From assembly GCF_003334785.1 (NCBI RefSeq), contig NZ_QOWV01000001.1: 64,000 bases of DNA, one strand, 5' to 3'. Source of the DNA: Escherichia coli (GTDB lineage Bacteria > Pseudomonadota > Gammaproteobacteria > Enterobacterales > Enterobacteriaceae). The notes beneath the pieces were generated by a model. It searched no databases and was not told the DNA's origin. It saw nothing but the letters and a program-made list of their open reading frames with translations. Below are positions 55,917 to 56,114 of the stretch, piece by piece (position 1 is the stretch's first letter; the number at the start of each line of letters is the position of its first letter). The position numbers were made by a program, and so were the translations under genes.

Positions 55917-55919
55917 ATT

Positions 55920-56079
55920 TTTTTCCATCAGATATAGCGTATTGATGATAGCCATTTTAAACTATGCGCTTCGTTTTGCAGGTTGATGTTTGTTATCAGC
56001 ACTGAACGAAAATAAAGCAGTAACCCGCAATGTGTGCGAATTATTGGCAAAAGGCAACCACAGGCTGCCTTTTTCTTTG
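55920..56079 (+). ncRNA. sraB: Candidate small RNA in the yceF-yceD spacer (position consistent with the reported sRNA SraB); 5' end not determined
   Basis: Plus-strand intrinsic terminator (aaggcaacc aca ggctgcctt + tttttcttt, ~56051-56079) with no plus-strand CDS upstream; 5' boundary is a guess. Confidence 0.4.
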
Positions 56080-56114
56080 ACTCTATGACGTTACAAAGTT
56101 AATATGCGCGCCCT

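Follow-up and report, generated by a model that had tools for sequence, protein, structure and literature searches.

The orphan terminator between yceF and yceD in Escherichia coli as the 3′ end of the known small RNA SraB: anatomy, conservation and possible roles

The intrinsic terminator lying in the spacer between yceF and yceD, within the 64,000-nt stretch of E. coli DNA analysed here (the window), almost certainly belongs to the sraB gene, which encodes an independently transcribed non-coding small RNA (sRNA), and the hairpin and U-tract would be the Rho-independent terminator of this RNA. SraB is already known, having been annotated since 2001 and being present in both Rfam and the MG1655 annotation; it is not a new discovery. 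The initial annotation, made from the letters of the sequence, had taken the hairpin as the end of a short plus-strand RNA finishing about 35 nt before yceD, had named SraB with moderate certainty, and had suggested a covariance-model search against sRNA families. Such a search returned the Rfam model RF00077 (SraB) on the plus strand, matching at 55910-56078 from its first position to its last (1-169 of 169) with 210.6 bits against a gathering threshold of 130 (E = 4.6e-44). The matched segment is identical at 169/169 positions to the MG1655 ncRNA sraB (b4418; 1146589-1146757), so that the name given was correct, and the small RNA anticipated there is borne out, ending 36 nt before the yceD ATG.

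The spacer occupies 55917-56114, exactly 198 nt. The window is E. coli chromosome, in which the NC_000913.3 (MG1655) coordinate equals the window position plus 1,090,679, and across 5 kb around sraB a single base (57065) separates it from MG1655. The gene has the flanks of an SraB ortholog, with yceF on the minus strand and yceD on the plus strand, and is co-oriented with yceD; compared with SraB/PsrD/pke20 of E. coli K-12 (RF00077, b4418), its sequence, position, strand and terminator are the same. Of 5426 complete E. coli genomes, 5425 contain the same 601-nt stretch around sraB. Both Rfam and the annotation describe the RNA in its 169-nt form, whereas the published transcription start site (TSS) data favour a 109-nt form starting from 55970. 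The features discussed below are collected in the table.

Table. Features of the sraB locus in window coordinates.
Feature	Position	Strand	Basis or remark
sraB (psrD, pke20; b4418), annotated 169-nt form	55910..56078	+	Rfam RF00077, MG1655 identity
Main short SraB transcript, 109 nt	55970..56078	+	Published refined TSS
−10 TAAAAT for annotated long-form TSS 55910	55899..55904	+	Five nt upstream, inside first yceF codons
yceF start codon	55914-16	−	
Candidate yceF −10 TAAAAT for TSS 55946	55954..55959	−	Read from sequence; promoter assignment putative
Candidate −10 TAAACT for TSS 55970	55958..55963	+	Six nt before TSS; promoter assignment putative
5′ hairpin of SraB, within the ~56-nt clade-specific insertion (55970 to about 56025)	55970..56010	+	RNAfold, Rfam consensus structure
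Core hairpin CGCAAUGUGUGCG, 4-bp stem, in E. coli extended to 56018-56046	56026..56038	+	Present in every sampled lineage
Intrinsic terminator hairpin AAAAGGCAACC-ACA-GGCUGCCUUUU	56049..56073	+	RNAfold, −10.1 kcal/mol, 10 bp
U-tract TTTTTCTTT, 3′ end of SraB	56070..56078	+	8/9 T
Candidate yceD-rpmF promoter TTGACT-17-TAATAT	56077..56105	+	Only sigma70-like match in 55300-56700
yceD ATG	56115	+	

The hairpin described by the initial annotation is found exactly as given there, with aaggcaacc at 56051-56059, aca at 56060-62 and ggctgcctt at 56063-71. The full structure predicted by RNAfold, AAAAGGCAACCACAGGCUGCCUUUU, is somewhat longer, and contains one internal A.C mismatch that is conserved. 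The first four U residues of TTTTTCTTT pair with the AAAA at the base of the stem, leaving UCUUU as the tail, and sraB is annotated as ending at the U-tract; the order of a stable, G+C-containing hairpin and, directly after it, a U-rich tract on the strand being transcribed is that of an intrinsic terminator. A custom terminator scan returned six comparable signals on the plus strand of the 64-kb window; in shuffled windows, the number was about 0.3. A generic terminator scanner did not call the SraB hairpin, which we attribute to the A.C mismatch, because reading the stem as a perfect one leaves a loop of 9 nt and the limit of the scanner is 8. When the inner segment of the E. coli terminator was shuffled, 13 of 1000 trials equalled the observed stability, and the same test was also significant for Pectobacterium (18/1000); it gave no significance in Erwinia or Ewingella. 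The fold of the whole SraB RNA is not unusually stable (z = −1.57), and since this value is not significant, it is not used as evidence here. Argaman 2001, cited in PMC8313858, proposed that transcription reads through the terminator in log phase.

The 5′ end of the RNA requires more attention. In a published re-analysis of dRNA-seq and Cappable-seq data, the main SraB TSS is placed at MG1655 1146649 (PMC7967276, supplementary table), corresponding to window position 55970 and lying 60 nt downstream of the annotated 5′ end at 55910. A product of about 105 nt beside the 169-nt form was verified by Northern blot in Argaman 2001, as cited in PMC7967276 and PMC8313858, and in vitro transcription of SraB is credited to the same work in PMC7967276; the expected length of the Salmonella homolog is 99 nt (PMC7967276). 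The candidate −10 box for the start at 55970 lies in a CAT(T/C)TTAAACT block that is invariant in 18/18 aligned Enterobacterales sequences, and also in K. pneumoniae and Enterobacter. The TAAAAT of the long form (55899-904) is found in E. coli and E. albertii only, the same place reading aaggat in Salmonella and aagtat or aagaat in Citrobacter. As judged from these alignments, the comparison agrees with the main TSS at 55970, and the upstream start at 55910 is Escherichia-specific. The short-form promoter has no recognisable −35 element, and a generic promoter scan of 55300-56700 called neither of the two SraB promoters.

On the opposite strand, the published yceF TSSs are at 1146625 and 1146700, that is, at 55946 and 56021 of the window (PMC7967276, supplementary table). 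The minus-strand TAAAAT is spaced as expected for the start at 55946, and the candidate −10 boxes of SraB and of this yceF promoter are thus arranged back to back with an overlap of 2 bp. The initial annotation had expected the promoter of the small RNA to overlap the start region of yceF, and this is right for the annotated 169-nt form only, whose −10 box is inside yceF codons; for the main TSS at 55970 it does not apply, the TAAACT overlapping the yceF −10 box and not its start codon. It had also suggested an interplay with the yceF and yceD promoters. Because the −10 boxes overlap, and because the U-tract overlaps the yceD −35 element, such putative interplay is physically plausible. A yceF transcript from 56021 would in addition be perfectly complementary to SraB nt 1-52 (55970-56021), and the long annotated form of SraB extends over the yceF start codon with an overlap of 7 nt. 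We note that the 52-nt overlap of the short form with yceF depends on the TSS at 56021, a promoter present in one of two published data sets. In one of the two data sets yceF transcription is barely detectable, which weakens the idea of a cis-antisense action.

The promoter of yceD was reportedly mapped by Tanaka in 1989. In the window, the candidate promoter reads TTGACT (56077-82), a 17-nt spacer, TAATAT (56100-05) and a GC-rich GCGCGCCCT, followed by the ATG, and its −35 element overlaps the last 2 nt of SraB. As a neighbour, this promoter would constrain sraB, without belonging to the RNA. From the U-tract up to the ATG of yceD, the aligned sequences of the sampled Enterobacterales hardly differ. 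There is no Shine-Dalgarno sequence before the yceD ATG (GCGCGCCCU), and yceD is reported from ribosome profiling to lack a 5′ non-coding leader (PMC4378010), which fits a transcript that starts with the ATG or immediately ahead of it; PMC13060810 gives two promoters for yceD, named p1 and p2. The main yceD transcript begins past the SraB terminator. The terminator would then stop transcription arriving from upstream at the edge of the yceD promoter, in a putative insulating role. We also need to consider that the strong conservation of the 3′ half of sraB could stem from the overlapping yceD and yceF promoters and not from the RNA.

The comparative anatomy was approached by two routes. A pattern scan of genome contigs (298 Gb) with CCCGCNATGTGNGCGAA, which has 15 specified bases, gave 120 loci, 117 of them chance matches and only three (L022, L031 and L057) real ones. 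Homologs were therefore not taken from this pattern; they were gathered via the neighbouring proteins, by an exact look-up of L32 and then of YceD homologs and the contigs encoding them. The sample comprised Salmonella, Citrobacter, Klebsiella, Enterobacter, Cronobacter, Buttiauxella, Erwinia, a Pantoea-type contig, Pectobacterium, Dickeya and Ewingella, and the gene order yceF(−)/yceD-rpmF-plsX-fabH(+) is kept in every sampled lineage. RF00077 scores above its threshold only in Escherichia, Salmonella (198-201 bits), Citrobacter (151) and one Klebsiella/Citrobacter-type contig (177); the remaining genera have a spacer of about 140 nt that reaches 30-52 bits against the threshold of 130. The difference lies in a 56-nt insertion that starts exactly at the E. 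coli TSS and is found in Escherichia, Salmonella, Citrobacter and one related contig. In the alignment, TAAACTATGCGC runs directly into CGCAATG in K. pneumoniae and into TTCG...CGCAATG in E. coli. The 5′ hairpin carried by the insertion is retained despite sequence variation in Salmonella, Citrobacter and locus L138, and is absent from K. pneumoniae, Enterobacter, Cronobacter, Buttiauxella, Erwinia, the Pantoea-type locus, Pectobacterium, Dickeya and Ewingella.

Outside the insertion-bearing group, the predicted transcript is 52-53 nt long and consists of a small CGCN5NGCG hairpin and the terminator. This core sits at the same site in all sampled Enterobacterales, between the invariant TAAACT −10 box and the invariant yceD promoter, and independent insertions between the core hairpin and the terminator occurred in Dickeya (72 nt) and in one Buttiauxella (110 nt). 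Pair 4-10 of the core hairpin is U-A instead of A-U in Pectobacterium and Ewingella, as it also is in the Dickeya sequence. The covariation is thin, amounting to one compensatory pair in the core hairpin, and the terminator base never varies: its AAAG/CUUU is invariant across the sampled Enterobacterales, while the inner stem is rebuilt from other sequences in each genus and the U-tract is identical in all sampled sequences but one. For the inner stem, column-based covariation is uninformative, the lineages pairing in different registers. A covariance model of the core (R1), built from ten sequences, scored 72 bits at the held-out syntenic site of K. pneumoniae and 66 bits at that of Enterobacter, with 26 bits in the insertion-carrying Dickeya. 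It has a single match in the window, at 56026-78 (71 bits), and none of about 70 unrelated loci that have a 17-mer in common with it exceeded 22.5 bits. We infer from these comparisons that E. coli SraB is composed of an ancient core of 52-53 nt and a 56-nt 5′ hairpin gained in the Escherichia/Salmonella/Citrobacter lineage, which suggests that the Rfam SraB model describes a clade-specific elaboration.

The best-characterised partner of SraB is ProQ. A 1:1 complex between ProQ and the E. coli RNA has been shown by HDX, SAXS and gel shift (EMSA), in which the FinO domain, the linker and the C-terminal domain are all contacted by the RNA (PMC5393179), and SraB is among the most enriched ProQ ligands according to Smirnov 2016, as cited in PMC5393179. 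In SEC-seq, PsrD co-elutes with the ProQ-bound sRNAs and is listed as a known ProQ binder (PMC9808575). [quoted passage not shown] A 10-bp stem and a UUUUUCUUU tract are present in SraB, and the pairing of AAAA (56049-52) with UUUU (56070-73) gives the geometry of a ProQ-type terminator. These pairs are kept in the core alignment, three being A-U in 10/10 sequences and the fourth A-U or G-U. The features of an Hfq class I sRNA are not seen, the flank upstream of the terminator being UUGGCAAAA, A-rich at the stem, and the unpaired 3′ end being UCUUU only. In the cell, SraB is a discrete and abundant RNA regulated by growth phase; ppGpp represses it in Salmonella, and it is up 5.1-fold upon replication inhibition in the first column of a DNA-damage expression table. 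SraB is described as having "no documented function to date" (PMC8313858), and its overexpression gave no biofilm, motility or fimbriae phenotype (PMC4606813).

Given such a record, SraB might be regarded as a functionless by-product of divergent promoters, its terminator having been selected as a shield for yceD-rpmF and its ProQ binding being generic, as ProQ recognises terminators generally (PMC7367173). The absence of a documented target or phenotype in the literature (PMC8313858, PMC4606813) would be expected of such an RNA, and so would the pattern of conservation, which is highest in the promoter boxes and in the overlap of the U-tract with the −35 element, the RNA body (5′ hairpin and inner terminator stem) turning over or being missing. 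We nevertheless consider this scenario unlikely. The CGCN5NGCG core hairpin has been kept by every sampled lineage, one of its pairs switching from A-U to U-A by a compensatory change; the structure of the 5′ hairpin is held in Salmonella and Citrobacter as its sequence changes; the abundance of the RNA and its response to growth phase, ppGpp and replication stress, as well as its place among the most enriched ProQ ligands (Smirnov 2016, as cited in PMC5393179), are not what a mere by-product would lead one to expect. A still less probable scenario, in our view quite improbable, makes the hairpin an attenuator in the leader of yceD-rpmF(-plsX), where transcription from the SraB promoter would either terminate at the hairpin and leave SraB as a by-product or continue into yceD. 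The co-orientation with yceD, the short distance from the U-tract to the ATG, the extreme conservation of the whole block, the existence of two yceD promoters, p1 and p2, in the literature (PMC13060810) and the log-phase read-through proposed by Argaman 2001, as cited in PMC8313858, are all in keeping with this. Attenuation of this kind would mean dependence of yceD on the upstream promoter together with an anti-terminator, whereas yceD owns a near-consensus TTGACT-17-TAATAT past the terminator that is invariant across the order, and neither the MFE nor the centroid folds contain an alternative anti-terminator pairing that could compete with the hairpin. The start of the main yceD transcript after the SraB terminator argues against SraB being a leader or attenuator of yceD, as do the report of yceD as leaderless (PMC4378010) and the existence of SraB as a stable ProQ-bound species in its own right. 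Because no Shine-Dalgarno sequence precedes the yceD ATG, a read-through transcript would probably be translated poorly.

Two further readings can be given hardly any weight. That the transcript encodes a small protein is suggested by a TTG-started 32-codon open reading frame (ORF) at 55990-56088 (+) and by a 16-codon ATG ORF at 56030-56080 (+) that recurs in Escherichia, Salmonella and Citrobacter. The start and length of the former vary between genera. The latter recurs because the underlying DNA stretch is invariant; it has no Shine-Dalgarno sequence, crosses the terminator hairpin and has a stop codon (56078-80) that straddles the 3′ end of the RNA, and in Erwinia, Pectobacterium, Ewingella and Dickeya it no longer has its ATG. 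SEC-seq, moreover, places PsrD with the ProQ-bound sRNAs and not in the ribosome-associated class (PMC9808575). Equally remote is the notion that the hairpin acts on the minus strand only, as terminator or stabiliser of an antisense or yceF transcript, the plus-strand reading being coincidental. On that strand the A.C mismatch becomes a G.U pair, which yields an uninterrupted 11-bp stem more stable than the plus version. Against this, the minus-strand hairpin is followed by UUUUGCCAAU, with four U only, no minus-strand gene lies upstream of it, and the yceF mRNA does not contain it, since the two published yceF TSSs (55946 and 56021) lie past it on that strand. The Rfam match is on the plus strand as well, and the core model scores higher there (71.2 bits) than on the minus strand (14.8). 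An sRNA gene with its own terminator on the plus strand is the reading we retain.

Let us then consider how sraB might work. The terminator would form the 3′ end of SraB and, with its paired stem base, at least four U and A-rich 5′ flank, would be the putative docking site for the FinO domain of ProQ. At the same time, it would halt transcription from upstream 2 nt into the −35 element of yceD-rpmF and thereby insulate this promoter. As to any regulation by SraB, our best guess is antisense pairing assisted by ProQ. The obvious cis-antisense partner would be the long yceF mRNA starting from 56021 on the minus strand, and targets in trans are equally possible. A cis-antisense role we regard as possible though not probable, and a trans-acting role we regard in just the same way; what remains of our expectation goes to SraB having no base-pairing role at all. 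There is a substantial chance that the RNA body of SraB has little function.

Comparison with related systems perhaps helps in placing SraB. It resembles the ProQ/FinO-domain-associated RNAs (cspE 3′UTR, malM 3′UTR, SibA-E, Sok and FinP) in being highly structured, in its terminator stem base and 3′ oligo-U, and in its A-rich flank (PMC7367173). An antisense overlap with a divergent mRNA, as in Sib, Sok and FinP, would also exist for SraB; for those RNAs the antisense target and the outcome are established, whereas the long yceF leader that SraB would overlap is weakly expressed and is a putative partner. With the Hfq-dependent class I sRNAs, it shares the organisation of an independent intergenic gene with a Rho-independent terminator, and some Hfq cross-linking of SraB has been reported (bioRxiv 10.1101/481986). 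Unlike them, it has an A-rich flank in place of a U-rich stretch before the terminator, has no long single-stranded U-tail, and its abundance does not track Hfq binding (bioRxiv 10.1101/481986). The likeness to attenuators and terminated leaders lies in a terminator placed directly upstream of, and co-oriented with, a ribosomal-protein operon (yceD-rpmF), for which read-through has been suggested; the difference lies in the conserved promoter that yceD-rpmF has of its own after the terminator, its reported leaderless state and the lack of any anti-terminator structure in our folds.

Irrespective of these details, SraB is a confirmed sRNA that serves as a model ProQ ligand, and the inference from an orphan terminator to an sRNA was a sound approach in this case. 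What the present analysis adds is modest, namely the comparative picture of a core with an insertion and the interlocking of sraB with the yceF and yceD promoters. This anatomy, comprising a deep core, a clade-specific 5′ domain beginning at the TSS, an overlap with the yceF −10 box and a terminator abutting the yceD-rpmF promoter, narrows where to look for function. We tentatively raise one more general scenario, which we hold to be rather doubtful as it stands: the annotated SraB may elaborate an older RNA of about 52 nt spread throughout the Enterobacterales, made of the CGCN5NGCG hairpin and a ProQ-type terminator, whose main role would be in cis. If this is true, the −10 box of the RNA would compete with the promoter of yceF, which encodes an m7GTP pyrophosphatase, and its terminator would serve to insulate or tune the leaderless yceD-rpmF, a ribosome-biogenesis and lipid operon with a GC-rich discriminator. 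The inserted 56-nt 5′ hairpin would then have added a newer function, possibly an antisense or a trans-acting one.

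The SraB and yceF promoters, which fire away from each other, are placed so closely that their -10 hexamers have 2 bp in common, the plus-strand TAAACT leading to the SraB start site at 55970 and the minus-strand TAAAAT to the yceF start site at 55946. Because of these shared base pairs, simultaneous occupancy of the two promoters is probably excluded. The start of the yceF reading frame itself differs between gene callers, the product being 194 aa with the ATG at 55916, or 207 aa when the in-frame ATG at 55955 is used (55917-55955, minus strand). This upstream ATG falls within the conserved -10 block, and it would be carried only by the long yceF mRNA starting at 56021.

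The minus strand also folds at both SraB 3' hairpins (56021-56043 and 56049-56073). A generic scanner called 56043-56021 on this strand terminator-like, and the complement of the SraB terminator at 56049-56073 is an unbroken 11-bp stem. For the yceF start at 56021, the hexamers TTGCCT and then CACATT, situated within these two hairpins, are plausible -35 and -10 elements. A yceF promoter inside the hairpins would further constrain this invariant stretch.

Stringently controlled promoters typically carry a GC-rich discriminator. Downstream of SraB, the block running from the yceD-rpmF promoter candidate through a GC-rich segment to the yceD ATG is, by sequence comparison, nearly invariant in all sampled Enterobacterales, and the -35 of this candidate shares nucleotides with the U-tract of SraB. 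The yceD ATG has no Shine-Dalgarno sequence in front of it, and one paper gives yceD as having no 5' leader (PMC4378010).

Features located in the window and in the corresponding loci of relatives (L-numbers)
Feature	Position	Strand
Two divergent, overlapping -10 hexamers within invariant block CATTTTAAACT	window 55954-55963	both
yceD-rpmF promoter candidate TTGACT-17-TAATAT, then GC-rich GCGCGCCCT, then yceD ATG	window 56077-56117	+
56-nt 5' hairpin module of SraB, an insertion	window 55970-56025; compare L148 1400-1412	
Element with an insertion of ~57 nt, one Buttiauxella genome	L137 1356-1464	
Element with an insertion of ~20 nt, Dickeya	L145 and L146 1393-1464	
rne 5' UTR element, Rfam above threshold (260 bits)	53713-54049	-
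ES056 sRNA, Rfam above threshold	12572-12663	-
ES036 sRNA, Rfam above threshold	22758-22800	-
PyrC leader, Rfam above threshold	31929-31978	-

Further above-threshold Rfam matches in the window all lie on the minus strand and belong to known families. Separately, a perfect 181-bp tandem repeat (3.4 copies; 6281-6903, minus-strand features) directly follows the serX tRNA-Ser(GGA) gene, each of three units giving an RtT-like match (RF00391) of 46.3 bits, barely over the threshold of 45; the MG1655 RefSeq record holds no annotation of this repeat region. Over the 5 kb compared with MG1655 the sole difference is at 57065 within plsX, C in the window vs T in MG1655, so that the source of the window is a strain closely related to K-12 and not MG1655 itself.

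Among the sampled genera, the 5' hairpin module of SraB is present only in Escherichia, Salmonella, Citrobacter and one Klebsiella/Citrobacter-type contig, and its first nucleotide is exactly the published SraB start site. In K. pneumoniae and Enterobacter, as in genera further removed, the element consists of the 52-53-nt core alone, which scores far under the Rfam SraB threshold. The Buttiauxella and Dickeya insertions are independent, and both separate the core hairpin from the terminator; other lineages have thus enlarged this small element too, but at another site.
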